Origin: a virus
Lineage: Duplodnaviria; Heunggongvirae; Uroviricota; Caudoviricetes
Length of the DNA: 29,045 nucleotides
Strand: one strand, 5' to 3'
Virus record (IMG/VR): IMGVR_UViG_2579778652_000007
Span: 1-29,045 of that record
Below are positions 16,729-28,415 of this stretch, piece by piece; the stretch's first letter is position 1; each line of letters begins with the position of its first letter. The translations under genes were made by a program, and so were the position numbers. The notes under the pieces are model-generated. The model was not told where the DNA came from and did no database searches. It saw nothing but the letters and a program-made list of their open reading frames with translations.

Positions 16729-17354
16729 CAATTGACTATCAGGCACTGCGTGAGGCGGCGGAACGTGCAATTCCAGCAATGGAACGCCTGTTAATGTTGC
16801 CAGCTGATGATGATTTGTTAAGTGAACAGGAACTTAAAGATTACGGTGTGGGTATTGATGCGCTCAACGCCTTCAAATTTCTGGCCGGACCAGAAACCGT
16901 GCTGGCACTGCTGGATGAACGGGAAAGAAACCAGCAATACATCAAACGCCGCGACCAGGAGAACGAGGATATTGCGCTAACGGTTGGGAGGCTGCTAATC
17001 GAAAACGGCCAGCTTGTTGCCGATACGCTACGCCACTTAGCTGATAACGAAATCGACTCTGATTATTTTGCTATCACCTCAACGAATGAGAACGGTACTG
17101 AAATTGATCATGAGATGGCTATTACCGATTACGCACTGCAAGCTGCCGGAACTGTAGACGAATTGGTTGCGGCGCTGGAATCCGCAGAGAAGCGCATTGC
17201 AGAACTGGAAGCGCGGGAAATACTGCTCCCGGAACGTAGCAGCATGCTTCATCGAACAGATTTTCACGATGATTACCAAACGGTAATGGCATACAAAGTT
17301 TCTGAAGTCATCGATGCAATCCGCGCTACTGGCATTCGCATCAAAGGAGAGTGA
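16725..17354 (+). CDS. Ea22-like (ead/Ea22 family) protein
   Basis: N-terminus MTIDYQALREAAERA and acidic coiled-coil body typical of lambdoid Ea22-like proteins; ATGA overlap with upstream stop (alternative start 16716). Confidence 0.7.
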   Translation: MTIDYQALREAAERAIPAMERLLMLPADDDLLSEQELKDYGVGIDALNAFKFLAGPETVLALLDERERNQQYIKRRDQENEDIALTVGRLLIENGQLVADTLRHLADNEIDSDYFAITSTNENGTEIDHEMAITDYALQAAGTVDELVAALESAEKRIAELEAREILLPERSSMLHRTDFHDDYQTVMAYKVSEVIDAIRATGIRIKGE

Positions 17355-17355
17355 T

Positions 17356-17565
17356 ATGGCTATTGCCGCAAGTTACACCATGCATCTCTACTGTGATTGT
17401 CGCCAGTGTACAAATGGTAAATATCAAACGCCAGACTTCGGTGAGTATATCGGTACGTCATGGGCTGGCTGTGCAAAAGAGGCGCGCAAGGATGGCTGGC
17501 GAATAAGCAAAGACAAAACGCGTGCTTTTGCGCCCGGGCATAAAGTTTTGAGGATTAACAAATGA
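17356..17565 (+). CDS. Small Cys-rich hypothetical protein (70 aa)
   Basis: ATG with AAGGAGAG RBS; YCDCRQC motif; ORF track gives longer 17314 start overlapping upstream gene. Confidence 0.55.
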   Translation: MAIAASYTMHLYCDCRQCTNGKYQTPDFGEYIGTSWAGCAKEARKDGWRISKDKTRAFAPGHKVLRINK

Positions 17566-18449
17566 CCACTATTACCAAAGAGCGACTGCTGACAATCAAG
17601 CAGTGGCGCGAAACATACGGACCTGGTAGCAACGTTGTACTGCCAGCAGAAGAAGCGGAAGAACTGGCACGAATTGCTCTGGCATCGCTGGAAGCAAAAC
17701 CAATAGGTGCATTCCACATTGCAGAACAGCAAGTTGACGGCACAAGTGACTACCTCAAGGATGGAGAATGGCCTATTGATAATGGAATTATTGAGGTCTA
17801 CGCCGCTCCACCCGTTCCAGTAGTACCGGAAGAAAAACCAATGCCTAATCCTCTTAGCATGTACGCGGTTGATGCTGTTGCCGCTATTGCAGAGGTGATA
17901 GGCTGGAATGCCTGCCGTGCCGCTATGCTTCAGTCCGGAAACTTTCGGGAAAACAAGAATTCGTCAACCAATAATTTTCGGGAAATCGCGGAAACGTCAA
18001 CCAACTATCCGGTAATTCCTAGTGAGGTGTTGTCCGCAATCTTGAAGGTTGCCAAGATTCGTGCCGATTTCGATGATTTTGACGGTGACAGGCGAGGTAT
18101 CGGTGATTGTCTGGATGAGGCTGAGCAAGAGCTTATCGTTACCATTAACAAATATGCCAGTCAGTTGGCAGCAGAACCTATAGCGCCTAATGACGTTCGA
18201 GAGCAGACAGCCATTCCGCAAGTTCCGGTAACTCCGGATGGTTGGATAAGCTGTAGTGAGCGAATGCCGGATACCAAAACAGCCGTTCTTGTTGCCAGGG
18301 AGTTTGACAGGAAAGGTGACTGGCGAATGAAATGGGCGACTTACATCCCGGGGCATCCTGACGCTAATGATGGGTGGGTAATACCTGGTGCGTCGTGGAT
18401 TCCATCACACTGGATGCCGCTACCAGAACCGCCGCAGGAGGCGAAATGA
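17562..18449 (+). CDS. Hypothetical protein with DUF551-like C-terminus
   Basis: 295 aa; C-terminal DGWISCSERMPD...WMPLPEPP resembles DUF551; ATGA overlap with upstream stop. Confidence 0.7.
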   Translation: MTTITKERLLTIKQWRETYGPGSNVVLPAEEAEELARIALASLEAKPIGAFHIAEQQVDGTSDYLKDGEWPIDNGIIEVYAAPPVPVVPEEKPMPNPLSMYAVDAVAAIAEVIGWNACRAAMLQSGNFRENKNSSTNNFREIAETSTNYPVIPSEVLSAILKVAKIRADFDDFDGDRRGIGDCLDEAEQELIVTINKYASQLAAEPIAPNDVREQTAIPQVPVTPDGWISCSERMPDTKTAVLVAREFDRKGDWRMKWATYIPGHPDANDGWVIPGASWIPSHWMPLPEPPQEAK

Positions 18450-18706
18450 TGGATGTAAAAGAGAAGGTTTTGCAGGTGATGCGTTCCCGTGCTGCCCTAC
18501 AAGAGAAAGCTCTCGGCGGTGAATATCCATTCACGATAGCAACCTGGAATCTGCGGTTGGCAATGGAGAAGGAATTTCCTGATGAAGAATGGCGCTCGGC
18601 AGATTTGCGCAAAATTCTTATGGAGCTGGCTAAAGACGGAACAGTATCCAAAGATACCCATGCCAGCCGGATTGGTCAGGCGGTATGGAGACTTGAGGTG
18701 CGGTAA
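18446..18706 (+). CDS. Hypothetical small protein (86 aa)
   Basis: ATG overlapping upstream stop (ATGATG); ORF track gives longer 18374 start. Confidence 0.5.
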   Translation: MMDVKEKVLQVMRSRAALQEKALGGEYPFTIATWNLRLAMEKEFPDEEWRSADLRKILMELAKDGTVSKDTHASRIGQAVWRLEVR

Positions 18707-18780
18707 TGAGCTGGCCTGAAGCATTTGCGATTGTAGGCGTAGCTATGGCGATTGCCGCTATTTTTATCTTCTGGGGGTAA
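18706..18780 (+). CDS. Possible 24-aa hydrophobic peptide
   Basis: ATG overlaps upstream stop (TAATG); MSWPEAFAIVGVAMAIAAIFIFWG; 2 nt before next ATG. Confidence 0.3.
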   Translation: MSWPEAFAIVGVAMAIAAIFIFWG

Positions 18781-18782
18781 CG

Positions 18783-19016
18783 ATGGGAAAATTAACTTTT
18801 GTTGTCGAATTTGAGGATGGCAAAGAGCCACCTGTTAGCGCCAATCTTGATGTTGCTGGTGGCAGGCTGGTTTCGGTTCTATTTGGTGATTACCGCGACG
18901 ACTTCTTTCAGCCTGAAGAAGTTGATGTAGTGCGAGAAGCATTAAACGAGCTAAGTGTTGATAACGATGATGCTCATGCGGAAATCATCAAAAAAATGGA
19001 ACTGCTAACTCACTAA
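18783..19016 (+). CDS. Hypothetical acidic small protein (77 aa)
   Basis: ORF-track ORF; tight spacing with neighbours. Confidence 0.5.
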   Translation: MGKLTFVVEFEDGKEPPVSANLDVAGGRLVSVLFGDYRDDFFQPEEVDVVREALNELSVDNDDAHAEIIKKMELLTH

Positions 19017-19064
19017 ATTATCAATTATGGTGCTATCACCTACGACACCGAGAGAAAATTTATA

Positions 19065-19187
19065 ATGTCAAAAGTAAATGTTTTGATTTTTTCAGCAATT
19101 GTTGGCTTTGGTTTTACTGCCGGAGTGCAGATTTATATTGCGTGGGAAAAAATCATCAACTACGCATGGAGTTGTTTTATTAAGTGA
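19065..19187 (+). CDS. Possible 40-aa hydrophobic peptide
   Basis: MSKVNVLIFSAIVGFGFTAGVQIYIAWEKIINYAWSCFIK; stop 8 nt before next ATG. Confidence 0.3.
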   Translation: MSKVNVLIFSAIVGFGFTAGVQIYIAWEKIINYAWSCFIK

Positions 19188-19194
19188 GGTAAGT

Positions 19195-19488
19195 ATGTGG
19201 AGAGGTAATAGTCATGGCAAAAGCCAGATGATACTTACCGAATATCAGTTTGACCATAAAACCAATAAATCACGTTCAGTATATTTGCTTCGGCACAATA
19301 GCCGCGTAAGGAATACCGTACTGGAGCAAAATCTGACTGTTGAAATGGATAATTACGGTGGCTTCAAGCCAACAATTTCGCTTGATGATTTTCCTCGTGG
19401 TTTAAGCGAAAGAGAAGCAATGCTGAAATTAGCAGAATGGCTACAAAGATTAAGCATTGCTATTGAAGATAACTGGTCTGAACCTTAA
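19195..19488 (+). CDS. Hypothetical protein (97 aa)
   Basis: ATG with GAGG 6 nt upstream; ORF track gives longer 19099 start. Confidence 0.5.
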   Translation: MWRGNSHGKSQMILTEYQFDHKTNKSRSVYLLRHNSRVRNTVLEQNLTVEMDNYGGFKPTISLDDFPRGLSEREAMLKLAEWLQRLSIAIEDNWSEP

Positions 19489-19494
19489 ATTTAT

Positions 19495-19869
19495 ATGATG
19501 ACACTAAAACATTTTCTTGACCGCCCATTATGGGCGGCAGCCGCAGGCTATGACTTTAATTATATGGATTGCATGTCTTATACTGCCAATGCATACGACC
19601 ATTCGTTCAGCCTGCTGTTTAATTCTTTAAGAATATTGCCGGAAACAGAAGTTGGAGAGCTTCATTTATGGCTATTGGGCTTTATCGCGGCTGTCGTTGG
19701 TATTGCTGTATGGCCTTTTATTTTCTGGCTGGTGGCTGTTGTAGTGTGGTTTAAGTGCAAGACGTACCGGAGAAAGTATTTCTTAGGTGATGGAATGACT
19801 GATATTGCCAAAATGAACATTGAAAAATGGACTAAGGAATGTGAAAAGAAATGGCGCAAAAAGAAATGA
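19495..19869 (+). CDS. Hypothetical membrane protein (two predicted TM segments)
   Basis: 124 aa; hydrophobic stretch LWLLGFIAAVVGIAVWPFIFWLVAVVVWF; Lys-rich C-terminus. Confidence 0.6.
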   Translation: MMTLKHFLDRPLWAAAAGYDFNYMDCMSYTANAYDHSFSLLFNSLRILPETEVGELHLWLLGFIAAVVGIAVWPFIFWLVAVVVWFKCKTYRRKYFLGDGMTDIAKMNIEKWTKECEKKWRKKK

Positions 19870-20789
19870 CCAGAATCACTGAAGAGCGTATATCAGAGAT
19901 TATTTCCCGTATCGAAATGTATGGTCACGGTGCTGGATATACGGCAGATGAAGTATTGGCACTTGCCCAAATGGTTTTGGCGGCTTGCAAAGATGATAAA
20001 AAAATGAAGTTTATCGACTTGTTAGTGAAGGAGCTGCCTAAGTGCGGCGGGTGGCCTGATGGAATGAGTTATTGTTACCTACCCAGTGTCAATTTAATGG
20101 CACCATGCGCGACTTTTGCTTTTGGCTCAGACCACAAAAAAGACACTTTCTTTGGGCGCAATTTTTGTTGTGATATTGAGCTTCCAATTGGTGACCTTGA
20201 TAGCGATGAATACCAGTCAGTTGTCACTCGCGAACAATACGAATCAGCTCTCATAGCGTCGCAGAAAGTCGAGTTCAATGGTGATGAACTTGAAAGTAAG
20301 ACTTACAGGTTGGATTTTGGGCAATGGCTGGAACAGCAACGCGGGAAAATCGATGTGGACTGTGGTTGTGTGTCCACTGAAACATTCATGCACTGGCTGC
20401 GGGTAGCTTACGAGGCTGGCAACTATCCGGATATTCCGGATAGTTCGGTGCCAGCGCCAGGAAAGGGCGTCACCGGTGAACGTATCCGCATTAAGCCGCA
20501 TGTTTATCGCGAACTGGTTAACCGTCTCCACGATACAGCGATCAAGTGTGCTGGCACCCAGCAATTACGAGAAAAAATTAGCCGTGTTTTGGGCGACGTT
20601 ATTACGCCAGATCATCATAAACAAGCCGAGAAAAGTGGCCTGGAAAGGTGTCACCTTGAGGCGGCATTAAACATTAAGCCGGGGCATACGCTTGGCATTA
20701 TTGATGCACTATTGGTTCATAAGATGGCCAGGGCTTTATTGCCGCTGGTGGCTGATAAGCATGAGGCGGGCCATGCCAACGAAAGCTGA
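19866..20789 (+). CDS. Hypothetical protein (about 307 aa)
   Basis: ATG 19866 overlaps upstream stop (ATGA); ORF track start 19851; no motif recognised. Confidence 0.65.
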   Translation: MTRITEERISEIISRIEMYGHGAGYTADEVLALAQMVLAACKDDKKMKFIDLLVKELPKCGGWPDGMSYCYLPSVNLMAPCATFAFGSDHKKDTFFGRNFCCDIELPIGDLDSDEYQSVVTREQYESALIASQKVEFNGDELESKTYRLDFGQWLEQQRGKIDVDCGCVSTETFMHWLRVAYEAGNYPDIPDSSVPAPGKGVTGERIRIKPHVYRELVNRLHDTAIKCAGTQQLREKISRVLGDVITPDHHKQAEKSGLERCHLEAALNIKPGHTLGIIDALLVHKMARALLPLVADKHEAGHANES

Positions 20790-22640: not shown

Positions 22641-23030
22641 ATGGGCTTCCCTTCTCCTGCGGCGGATTATGTTGAAAGCCGAATTTCTCTTGATCAGCAA
22701 CTAATCAGGCATCCATCAGCAACCTACTTCATGCGGGCAGCTGATAGCCATCACCGTGAGGGAATATTGCAGGGTGCTTTGCTGGTGGTTGATTCTTCGC
22801 TTACTCCAGTTGATGGTTCGCTGCTTGTGTGCGCTATGGAGGGTGAATATCGCATAAAGAGATACCGAAAGTATCCGCGCCAGCACCTGGAGGATTTAAG
22901 CACCGGGAAGAAAGAGGCGTTACCAGTAGATGACGATGGATGCACGGGAAGTAATGCTGTTTTTGGTGTGATCACTCATGTCATCAATGATGCCCGAAGT
23001 GGGGAATTTGATGATTGTCCGGTCATTTAA
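22641..23030 (+). CDS. humD: UmuD-prime-like SOS mutagenesis protein (P1 HumD-like)
   Basis: 129 aa beginning MGFPSPAADYVE, i.e. at the position where UmuD is cleaved (Cys24-Gly25); HPSATYF and VFGVITHVI conserved; Ser and Lys of S24 dyad region present. Confidence 0.9.
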   Translation: MGFPSPAADYVESRISLDQQLIRHPSATYFMRAADSHHREGILQGALLVVDSSLTPVDGSLLVCAMEGEYRIKRYRKYPRQHLEDLSTGKKEALPVDDDGCTGSNAVFGVITHVINDARSGEFDDCPVI

Positions 23031-25047: not shown

Positions 25048-25500
25048 ATGTTACTTAACTGGCAGGGACGCCACTTCATGGAAATAAATCACTCACGAAT
25101 AACATCGTACGAGATTGCGGATTACATGATCCGCACTAAATCTCTTCTATCAGCGAAAGAACTCGCAGCAATTCTTGAAAAGGAATACCCGCATCTGGAT
25201 GTCGATAAGCGCGATGTTTATCTGCGCTTAAAGGCTATCGCTGTGTCTAAGTATTCGTCTGTTTTGATTGATGACAGTACACGCCCACGTAGATTTCAGA
25301 TCCACTCTCTGAATCCTGAATTCTTTCGCCGCAGCCGCGCTCCGCGCCGGTTTGATGAAAAACTCCAGAACGAACTCTATATGACGCAGGACGAAAAGGA
25401 ACGCCGGGAGCACCAGCCTTGGGTGATGGCGCGTCAACTTTTCAATAAGGTGGTCCGTCAGCACCGTCATTACGGTAATGCCACATCCGCACGTATCTGA
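25048..25500 (+). CDS. lpa: Putative late-promoter activator (Lpa-like) by position
   Basis: 150-aa basic ORF immediately upstream of pacA and downstream of an operator-overlapped promoter; alternative start ATG 25078; no direct motif. Confidence 0.5.
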   Translation: MLLNWQGRHFMEINHSRITSYEIADYMIRTKSLLSAKELAAILEKEYPHLDVDKRDVYLRLKAIAVSKYSSVLIDDSTRPRRFQIHSLNPEFFRRSRAPRRFDEKLQNELYMTQDEKERREHQPWVMARQLFNKVVRQHRHYGNATSARI

Positions 25501-25586
25501 TTGATTGCTTGCCCGTTCCGGGCCTTTTGACATGTGACTTTCGTTACCCTCGCGTCAAAAAGAGTTTTATACGAAAGGAAGCATAA

Positions 25587-26780
25587 GTGACCTGGGACGA
25601 TCACAAGAAGAATTTTGCTCGCCTGGCGCGAGATGGTGGTTACACCATCGCACAATATGCCGCCGAGTTTAATCTCAACCCAAACACCGCACGTCGTTAT
25701 CTCCGTGCATTCAAAGAAGACACCGGAACAGCGGACAGCCGTAAGCCAAATAAGCCTGTCAGAAAACCACTAAAAAGCATGATCATTGATCACGCTAATG
25801 ATCAACGTGCAGGTGATCACATTGTGGCTGAAATGGCTGAAAAACAAAGAGTTAATGCTGTTGTCAGTGCCGCAGTCGAGAACGCGAAGCGCCAGAATAA
25901 GCGCATAAATGATCGTTCTGATGATCATGACGTGATCACCCGCGCCCACCGGACCTTACGTGATCGCCTGGAACGCGACACCCTGGATGATGATGGTGAA
26001 CGCTTTGAATTCGAAGCGGGCGATTACCTGATAGATAACGTTGAAGCGCGGAAGGCCGCGCGCGCTATGTTGCGTCGTTCCGGAGCTGATGTTCTGGAAA
26101 CCACTCTTCTGGAAAAGTCTCTTTCTCATCTCCTTATGCTGGAGAACGCCCGGGATACGTGTATTCGCCTGGTGCAGGAAATGCGCGATCAGCAAAAAGA
26201 CGATGATGAAGGTACTCCGCCTGAATACCGTATCGCGAGCATGCTAAACAGCTGTTCCGCGCAGATAAGCAGTCTGATCAACACCATTTACAGCATCCGG
26301 AATAACTATCGAAAAGAAAGCCGGGAGGCGGAAAAGCACGCTTTGTCTATGGGGCAAGCTGGCATTGTTAAGCTGGCATACGAACGAAAGCGTGAAAATA
26401 ACTGGTCAGTTCTGGAAGCGGCTGAATTCATCGAGGCGCATGGAGGGAAAGTGCCGCCCCTGATGCTGGAGCAAATCAAAGCCGATCTGCGTGCTCCTAA
26501 GACAAATACCGATGATGAGGAAAGGCAAACTGCCGTCGGTGGCCCTTCTCTTGAAGATCTGGACAAAGTTGCGCGAGAACGGGCCGCCAACCGCCGCGCC
26601 GATGCCGCATTGTGGATTGAGCAGCGTAGGGAAGAAATCGCCGATATCGTTGATACAGGCGGTTATGGAGATGTTGATACTGAAGGTGTATCAAACGACC
26701 CATGGCTGGAACAAGACCTGGACGAAGACGAGGAGGAAGATGAAGAAGTTACCCGCAAGCTATACGGGGATGATGATTAA
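25587..26780 (+). CDS. pacA: Terminase small/pac-recognition subunit (PacA-like)
   Basis: 397 aa; GTG start with AAGGAAG RBS; gene contains the pac hexamer cluster; acidic C-terminus. Confidence 0.8.
25781..25967. other. pac packaging site: clusters of TGATCA/G hexamers, each containing GATC
   Basis: Left cluster 25781-25786, 25788-25793, 25800-25805, 25815-25820; right cluster 25911-25916, 25923-25928, 25934-25939, plus 25962-25967; about 90 bp between clusters. Confidence 0.8.
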
Positions 26781-28264
26781 TGGCCAGAAGTTGCGTAACG
26801 GATCCACGTTGGCGCGAGCTGGTGGCGCTATATCGTTATGACTGGATTGCTGCCGCTGATGTTTTGTTCGGCAAAACACCTACCTGGCAGCAGGATCTGA
26901 TTATTGAGTCTGTGCAGGAACAGGGTAGCAAGACATCTGTTTCGTCTGGTCACGGTACCGGGAAATCAGACATGACTTCTATCATGATCATGTTGTTCAT
27001 AATCATGTATCCCGGTGCCCGCGCCATTATCGTTGCGAACAAAATTCAGCAGGTAATGACCGGTATATTCAAGTACATCAAGATAAACTGGGCTACTGCC
27101 ACCAGCCGTTTTCCATGGCTTGCTGATTATTTTGTTCTGACAGAAACCGCTTTCTATGAGGTTACTGGTAAAGGTGTATGGACTGTAGTACCGAAGGGCT
27201 TTCGTCTGGGAAGTGAAGAAGCTCTCGCCGGTGAACACGCAGATCATCTTCTGTATATTATCGATGAAGCCTCCGGTGTCAGTGATAGAGCTTTCGGTAT
27301 CATCACCGGTGCTCTTACCGGACAGGATAACCGCATCTTATTACTGTCACAGCCTACACGCCCAAGCGGCTATTTCTACGATACTCACCATAAACTGGCC
27401 AAGCGTCCTGGTAACCCTGATGGCGTTTATACGGCGATCACGCTTAACAGTGAGGAATCACCGCTGGTAACGCCAGCATTTATCAAAATGAAGCTGGCGG
27501 AGTACGGCGGGCGCGATAACCCTATGTACATGATTAAGGTACGCGGCCTATTCCCTAAATCACAGGATGGCTTCCTTCTTGGACGTGATGAGGTTGAACG
27601 TGCAACGCGGCGGAAAGTCAAGATTGCCAAAGGATGGGGCTGGCTTGCATGTGTGGACGTTGCTGGTGGTACGGGAAGGGATAAGTCCGTTATCAATATC
27701 ATGATGGTGTCCGGCCAGCGAAACAAACGCCGTGTAATCAACTATCGAATGCTGGAATACACAGACGTTACAGAAACGCAGCTTGCCGCCAAAATTTTCG
27801 CAGAATGTAATCCTGAGCGATTCCCAAATATCACCATAGCGATAGACGGCGATGGCCTGGGTAAAGCAACAGCGGATCTGATGTACGAGTATTATGGTAT
27901 TACCGTACAGCGTATACGCTGGGGTAAAAAGATGCATAGCCGTGAAGATAAGAGCCTGTACTTTGATAAACGTGCTTATGCCAACGTTCAAGCCTCAGAG
28001 GCCGTAAAATCTGGTCGTATGAGACTGGATAAGGGTAATGAAACTATTGAGGAAGCGTCGAAAATCCCTGTAGGGATTAACTCCGCAGGTCAATGGAAGG
28101 TGATGAGTAAGGAGGATATGAAGAAAAAACTCAACCTGCACTCACCAGACCATTGGGATACATATTGTTTCGCTATGCTGGCGGATTATGTTCCCCAGGA
28201 TGAAGTGCTTAGCGTCGAAGACGAAGCGCAGGTTGATGAAGCTCTGGCATGGCTTAATGAGTAA
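26780..28264 (+). CDS. pacB: Terminase large subunit (PacB-like)
   Basis: 494 aa; Walker [10 protein letters not shown], Walker [11 protein letters not shown]; ATG overlaps pacA stop (TAATG). Confidence 0.85.
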
Positions 28265-28267
28265 AAA

Positions 28268-28284
28268 CTTGCTCTAATAAATTG
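28268..28284 (+). promoter_or_regulatory. C1-operator-like 17-mer CTTGCTCTAATAAATTG (15/17)
   Basis: Begins 4 nt after the pacB stop. Confidence 0.55.
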
Positions 28285-28415
28285 TGTTTTTTGACTGCCG
28301 ATGTTACATTGAACCTGACCTCTTGCGCCTTGAGGCATTTTCGGTTTATGCTTATCAGGCACCTCAGTAAAACGGGTGCCGGGATTGGAACCCCGGATAA
28401 TGTCAAAGGCGACAC

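Follow-up and report, generated by a model that had tools for sequence, protein, structure and literature searches.

The window (the whole stretch of viral DNA analysed here, 29,045 nucleotides in length) carries near its right end a packaging locus in which a late-promoter activator, a promoter dependent on it and the genes for two pacase subunits accompany an array of GATC-containing hexamers:

25048–25500, + strand: lpa, late-promoter activator of the pacAB operon (Pfam BPP1_LPA, E=2e-57)
25532–25550, + strand: LPpac, Lpa-dependent late promoter (−22 box and −10); its 19-mer ATGTGACTTTCGTTACCCT is that of P1 LPpac
25587–26780, + strand: pacA, pac-recognition (small-terminase-like) pacase subunit; a 397-codon open reading frame containing pac
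25780–25819: HEX4, by P1 homology the left PacA-binding arm of pac; four TGATCA, each a Dam GATC
25842–25854, + strand: IHF site, by P1 homology; AAACAAAGAGTTA, equal to the AF234172 protein_bind IHF feature in sequence and position
25862–25871: predicted pac cleavage positions, from AF234172; upper strand 25864/25865 and 25870/25871, lower strand 25862/25863 and 25868/25869
25910–25938: HEX3, right arm of minimal pac; TGATCG at 25910, TGATCA at 25922 and 25933
25961–25966: eighth hexamer, TGATCG, outside the 159-bp span of hexamers 1–7; role uncertain
26780–28264, + strand: pacB, large-terminase (nuclease/ATPase) pacase subunit (PHROG 2 terminase large subunit, E=5e-40)

All of lpa, LPpac, pacA and pacB are intact and free of frameshifts, and the cognate pacase (PacA plus PacB) is encoded at pac itself, under LPpac and together with lpa. 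PacA is identical in amino-acid sequence to SJ46 PacA (100%) and 95.5% identical to P1 PacA, which agrees with the initial annotation's placement of the array inside pacA; it matches the terminase profile PHROG 1711 (E=1e-204) and, at its N-terminus, shows a weak Pfam match to HTH_23. PacB aligns with P1 PacB over all 494 residues at 88% amino-acid identity, the corresponding interval is annotated as pacB in relatives, and lpa is annotated at the homologous position in P1, P7, SJ46 and RCS47. The pacA leader (25563–25586) carries a 1-bp insertion relative to P1 (GAGTTTTATACG versus GAGTTTTTACG) that falls between LPpac and the GTG start of pacA, and the SJ46 locus has the same offset.

Over positions 25400–28300 the window is 98–99% identical to SJ46, phiW39 and RCS47, the features beneath the match being lpa, pacA and pacB, and 87.6% identical to P1 and P7. 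P1-type genes occur elsewhere in the window as well (a ban-like DnaB, DUF968/pdcB and lpa), and about 600 plasmid records, mostly from Escherichia and Salmonella, carry the window's PacA. PLSDB holds no match to the full window, its best record reaching 96% coverage at 98.3% identity. Because of these phage identities, the Pfam and PHROG scans, the PacA and PacB identities and the plasmid-record matches, we assign the window to a mosaic SJ46-type Punavirus (P1-like) phage-plasmid, of which it is, by all of these comparisons, a part. Divergence from P1 is uneven across the region: DNA identity is 94–99% in pacA and falls to 65% in 159-bp windows elsewhere in pacAB, and the changes in PacB relative to P1 are concentrated in its first ~250 residues. 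This distribution suggests that a mosaic boundary lies close to where pacA and pacB meet.

The GATC-bearing hexamers, described in the initial annotation as clusters separated by about 90 bp, were recovered by direct counting: TGATCA occurs on the + strand at 25780, 25787, 25799, 25814, 25922 and 25933, and TGATCG at 25910 and 25961. The corresponding GATC sites start at 25781, 25788, 25800 and 25815, then at 25911, 25923, 25934 and 25962, so that all eight clustered sites are TGATCR on the + strand and each hexamer is a Dam target. Hexamer 4 ends at 25819 and hexamer 5 begins at 25910, which leaves exactly 90 bp between the two groups; hexamers 1–7 together span 159 bp, in keeping with the 161–162 bp of the published minimal P1 pac. 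Within pacA the array is confined to the 5' third, with hexamer starts at gene offsets 194–347 for the seven canonical copies and up to 375 when the eighth is included. Three to four hexamers had been proposed on the right; three stand, and the fourth (25961) is not part of the minimal P1 site, and its position is not conserved in the Cronobacter phage JK004 and Salmonella sequences considered below.

Such clustering departs strongly from the composition of the window. Within 186 bp there are eight GATC sites against 0.72 expected from the window's density of 1 per 259 bp, this is the sole place in the window with at least four GATC per 200 bp, and no second GATC cluster was found in the window. 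Eight GATC within 187 bp arose in none of 300 third-order Markov simulations and in 0.08% of 20,000 uniform placements. The hexameric context is equally distinctive: since only 24 of the 104 GATC sites outside the cluster (23%) lie in a TGATCR (+) context, the occurrence of all eight in that context has p ~8e-6.

In the element, its architecture and its methylation control, pac was defined for P1 between 1987 and 1994, reportedly in the work of Sternberg and Coulby (1987 and 1990) and of Skorupski and colleagues (1992 and 1994). P1 pac comprises 161 bp inside pacA, with seven TGATCA/G repeats arranged as HEX4 and HEX3 and, in addition, an IHF site and a central cleavage site (PMC10028697). As reference we used the curated P1 record AF234172, in which pacA contains annotated features for the IHF site and for four primary pac cleavage positions. 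At pac the window aligns with P1 and P7 without gaps, all eight hexamers falling at identical positions, and because the alignment is gapless a window coordinate equals the AF234172 coordinate minus 64942. Over the 159 bp spanning hexamers 1–7 the window differs from SJ46 at 0 positions, from RCS47 at 7, from P1 at 9 and from P7 at 11, and the hexamers differ from none of the four. The SJ46 element (P1-CTX, KU760857), with its identical PacA, thus shows no difference at the site, and RCS47, which with phiW39 is a near relative, carries all of its differences outside the hexamers. None of the nine P1 substitutions touches a hexamer, the IHF site or a cleavage-position base. The proposed match to P1 pac architecture is supported.

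The IHF sequence lies between HEX4 and the cleavage centre, as in P1, and has one mismatch to the consensus WATCAANNNNTTR. A scan of the window for that consensus returned 37 matches against 32 expected, which is no enrichment; because the motif is not enriched, it is positional identity with P1 that supports the site. Directly to its left, at 25825–25842, the window carries a perfect 9-bp tandem (TGGCTGAAA twice), which in P1 is imperfect (CGGCTGAAA TAGCGGAAA). The predicted cuts fall almost exactly midway between hexamers 4 and 5, the inner members of HEX4 and HEX3, within a run of bases (25860–25882) identical to P1. Position 25859, 3 nt left of the first cut, is T in the window and C in P1; T also occurs there in SJ46 and in 24 of 63 distinct natural variants among the matches listed. 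Sequencing of P1 virion ends with PhageTerm found two main termini 6 bp apart, corresponding to the Sternberg–Coulby sites (PMC5557969), and this spacing fits the two upper-strand cuts in AF234172. The locus therefore shares with P1 pac its position in pacA, the 4+3 TGATCA/G hexamers with their spacing and 90-bp spacer, the IHF 13-mer, the cut bases and the flanking lpa, LPpac and pacB; it is unlike P1 in its nine substitutions in 159 bp, in the perfect tandem and in a PacB that is only 88% identical.

In six of the eight hexamers the same reading frame gives x-Asp-His/Gln/Arg, and for that reason a coding artefact needed to be excluded, namely that the GATC cluster is a by-product of PacA coding (Asp-His, Asp-Gln, Asp-Arg) or of chance and plays no role as DNA. 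Against P1 alone, pac is indeed no more conserved than the rest of pacA, with third positions identical at 47 of 53 codons in pac and 297 of 344 elsewhere (p=0.83), but this comparison is uninformative because the whole of pacA is so close to P1. We therefore turned to a divergent set, Cronobacter phage JK004 (PacA 70.5% identical) and three Salmonella plasmids (~70%), and computed conservation on an eight-sequence gapless alignment with hexamers 2–7 as the core. Invariant columns make up 35 of 36 positions in the core hexamers and 45 of 116 between hexamers (p=5e-11), and the same holds at third codon positions (11 of 12 versus 14 of 39, p=8e-4); the window and JK004 agree at 100% of the core hexamer positions and at 47% of the positions in between. 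The hexamers persist through the amino-acid changes IDH>NDQ, GDH>RDQ/CDH, NDR>DDR and DDH>GDH/SDH: their Asp codon is always GAT and never GAC, and the T at the preceding third position is retained although the amino acid it belongs to changes (I/N, G/R/C, N/D, D/G/S).

The outer hexamers behave differently from the core. Hexamers 2–4 and those of HEX3 keep their exact positions in JK004 and the Salmonella plasmids, whereas hexamer 1 is absent from them and the position of hexamer 8 is not conserved; GATC occurs instead at window-equivalent positions 25951 and 25977 (JK004 and the Salmonella plasmids) and 25762 (JK004 only). P1, P7, RCS47 and SJ46 all have the eighth hexamer, as do 56 of 63 distinct natural variants among the matches listed. 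Because hexamers 1 and 8 vary, strict conservation is limited to a 3 + 3 core whose 90-bp spacer is fixed, and because these six hexamers stay fixed as neighbouring codons and amino acids change, the constraint acts on DNA: the alignment shows selection on the hexamer sequence itself, whatever amino acids it encodes. Two further observations argue against an origin in coding, a TGATCA array that in Leclercia and Citrobacter relatives occupies non-coding DNA upstream of the gene, and the approximately 9-fold lower phage titre that follows synonymous mutation of the P1 hexamers (PMC10028697). With clustering far beyond chance, conservation across divergent lineages and the P1 synonymous mutants all against it, a by-product of coding or chance is effectively refuted and retains almost no probability. 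The three Salmonella plasmids carry an extra TGATCA at window-equivalent 25861–25866, the homologue of the P1 cleavage centre (GATC at 25862).

A scan of public viral and genome collections with the core pattern (36 specified bases, with spacers of 80–100 bp allowed) found the 3+3 architecture in at least 119 viral contigs and in 2 species-representative genomes of Escherichia. All 121 matches listed are 152 bp long and so have a spacer of exactly 90 bp, and every one of these listed matches overlaps a PacA homologue of 69–100% identity, none lying outside pacA. Within what these matches cover, the 3+3 architecture is, as far as sequence can tell, specific to pacA. The window's exact 262-bp version occurs in at least 18 public viral or genome loci.

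Clusters of GATC are also a hallmark of targets of SeqA sequestration, and P1 uses Dam sites elsewhere, for example the three annotated upstream of cre, so that one might read the array as serving mainly to sense Dam methylation or SeqA for replication or transcription, in the manner of oriC, P1 oriR or the cre promoter, rather than for packaging. Those clusters likewise take their timing from the hemimethylated DNA that replication leaves behind; they differ in controlling replication or transcription and not cleavage, in being intergenic and in their repeat contexts. The site here lies inside a coding gene, has a GC content of 0.49 without an AT-rich segment, and shows no iteron-like array, the repeat search having returned, beyond the hexamers, only short low-copy chance-like matches and the one 9-bp tandem; an origin-like or iteron identity was rejected on these grounds. 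The site is moreover orthologous to the mapped P1 cleavage site, and its architecture is confined to pacA among the matches listed. We consider a primary role in replication or transcription very improbable.

We are thus highly confident that 25780–25938 is the pac of a P1-like (SJ46-type Punavirus) phage-plasmid, situated inside pacA and working by the mechanism carried over from P1. The orthology and intactness of all sequence parts of the site, the selection on its hexamers as DNA and the exclusivity of its architecture to pacA among the matches listed are read from the sequence here; protein binding, IHF/HU bending, cut positions, methylation gating, direction and headful packaging are taken from P1. 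Late in the lytic cycle, Lpa would activate LPpac and PacA and PacB would be made, PacA then binding the HEX4 and HEX3 arms. IHF with HU would bind between HEX4 and the centre and bend the ~90-bp spacer, bringing the arms together, and PacB would cut both strands, staggered over about one helical turn at 25862–25871. For P1, binding and bending by IHF/HU are required for faithful cleavage, according to Skorupski et al. (1994) as cited in PMC10028697. Cutting would depend on host Dam or phage Dmt having methylated the adenines of the hexamer GATC sites on both strands, and newly replicated, hemimethylated copies would be bound and left uncut, giving one initiation per concatemer. This expectation follows P1, in which pac is bound in the hemimethylated state and becomes open to cleavage once fully methylated (PMC10028697). 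From the cut, processive headfuls of ~110% of the genome each would be filled.

P1 requires Dam methylation at pac, and its dmt is therefore essential in dam− hosts (PMC12707154). In the 14 open reading frames of the window that were scanned with Pfam, a selection that is not exhaustive, no methyltransferase gene was detected, and methylation would accordingly be supplied by the host or by a phage gene beyond the window. In P1, dmt presumably lies outside the span homologous to the window.

The initial annotation held that the hexamers mark both the start and the direction of packaging. They do mark the start; direction cannot be read from them and follows only by homology with P1. In the record the P1 lox site is centred at position 1; going right from the cut, it is reached after 3,990 bp, past pacB, c1, coi and imcBA. 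The terminal redundancy of the first headful includes lox, and packaging in P1 therefore runs from pac to lox, which corresponds to rightward in the window. A loxP sequence is absent from the window with up to 3 mismatches allowed; by homology lox would be expected near 29860, ~800 bp past the right end. On this analysis packaging most likely proceeds to the right, passing pacB and c1 on the way to lox. We found no explicit statement of the packaging direction in the literature searched.

An intact pac need not be a working one, and the element could be a relic, a P1-like plasmid that is defective or cointegrated, has stopped packaging DNA and leaves the site idle. The element is visible over 29 kb only, and the prophage could for that reason be defective elsewhere; the missing full-length match in PLSDB and the occurrence of P1-like pacAB–pac modules in non-phage contexts point the same way. 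Against this stand the uninterrupted lpa, LPpac, pacA and pacB, the P1-type genes in the rest of the window and a pac identical to that of an infective phage, SJ46, which (under the name P1-CTX) is inducible, forms plaques and complete particles, and transduces (PMC11117986). We judge a relic improbable and a working P1-type pac much the likelier reading.

One such non-phage context is NZ_OM179752.1 (pT2-4-4-ndm), a 139-kb conjugative IncF/IncHI1B NDM plasmid in which positions 22904–29260 hold a P1-type module of coi, c1, pacB, pacA, lpa, pdcB, doc and phd, the same part carrying qnrS1 and tet(A). It looks like a cointegrate of a phage-plasmid and a conjugative plasmid, and since it retains pacA it probably retains pac. 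Its pacA coordinates are numerically those of the window by coincidence, the gene lying on the opposite strand in a different context.

A pac with this architecture is already known from P1, and the window's own site shows nothing new. Its value is practical: the site fixes the start of headful packaging and probably its direction, and therefore the genes that fall in the terminal redundancy of the first headful. It can be used to predict the transfer of cargo, such as the resistance genes on SJ46- and RCS47-type elements, as well as for building phagemids and as a sensible genome start for annotation. Among other headful phages, pac likewise lies inside the small-terminase gene, that is, the gene of the protein that recognises it, in P22 (gene 3), SPP1 (gene 1) and Sf6, and in these phages, which are capable of generalized transduction, a single initiating cut leads to processive headful packaging. 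The P22, SPP1 and Sf6 sites are not known to contain GATC or TGATCA arrays or to have a methylation gate or an IHF requirement. Membership of PacA in the P22, SPP1 or Sf6 TerS families was not detectable, the only match being a weak one to PHROG 370 (E=5e-4).

Mildly new material lies outside the window, in the TGATCA arrays of PacA relatives of 25–33% identity and in a D6-like group that has none. PacA-like genes at that level of identity in Serratia, Pantoea, Xenorhabdus, Leclercia and Citrobacter carry TGATCA arrays phased at ~12 bp (genes at L006 2492–3694, L010 1001–2230, L011 1001–2338, L012 1010–2176 and L013 1010–2266). Pantoea has six TGATCA at exact 12-bp steps (gene offsets 154–214), Serratia a left group of five or six and a right group of about three, and Xenorhabdus a 3 + 2 array. 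The Leclercia and Citrobacter genes are preceded by four or five hexamers in non-coding DNA (offsets −125 to −59), and two or three further copies occur at +175 to +192. The D6-like plasmid prophages of E. coli and E. fergusonii (L014, gene 1001–2365; L015, gene 1001–2323) have no TGATCA array. Their gene, annotated 'DNA pacase A subunit' and encoding ~450 aa, adjoins an lpa-like gene and contains five mixed NGATCN sites at gene offsets 316–447, and this sequence pattern suggests a different type of pac in the group.

A tentative and, in our estimation, unlikely extension would be that phased (~12-bp) TGATCA arrays form a family-wide recognition code of PacA-type terminases in Enterobacterales phage-plasmids, with the number and location of the hexamers drifting. 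If packaging specificity depends on such differences, pac would be a determinant that evolves fast and is gated by methylation, and co-resident P1-like elements would sort into packaging-incompatibility groups.

Beyond pac, the distribution of GATC in the window is uneven. A stretch of 3.4 kb (17110–20539) is free of GATC where ~13 sites would be expected, a gap with a chance of ~2e-4; it partly overlaps a low-GC segment (GC 0.37–0.42 at 19000–20000) and includes a DUF551 open reading frame (17562–18449) and several small ones. Over the whole window and both strands, TGATCR is over-represented, with 64 matches against 36 ± 7 expected, and the 50 that remain once the 14 matches inside pac are set aside are still ~2 sd above expectation.
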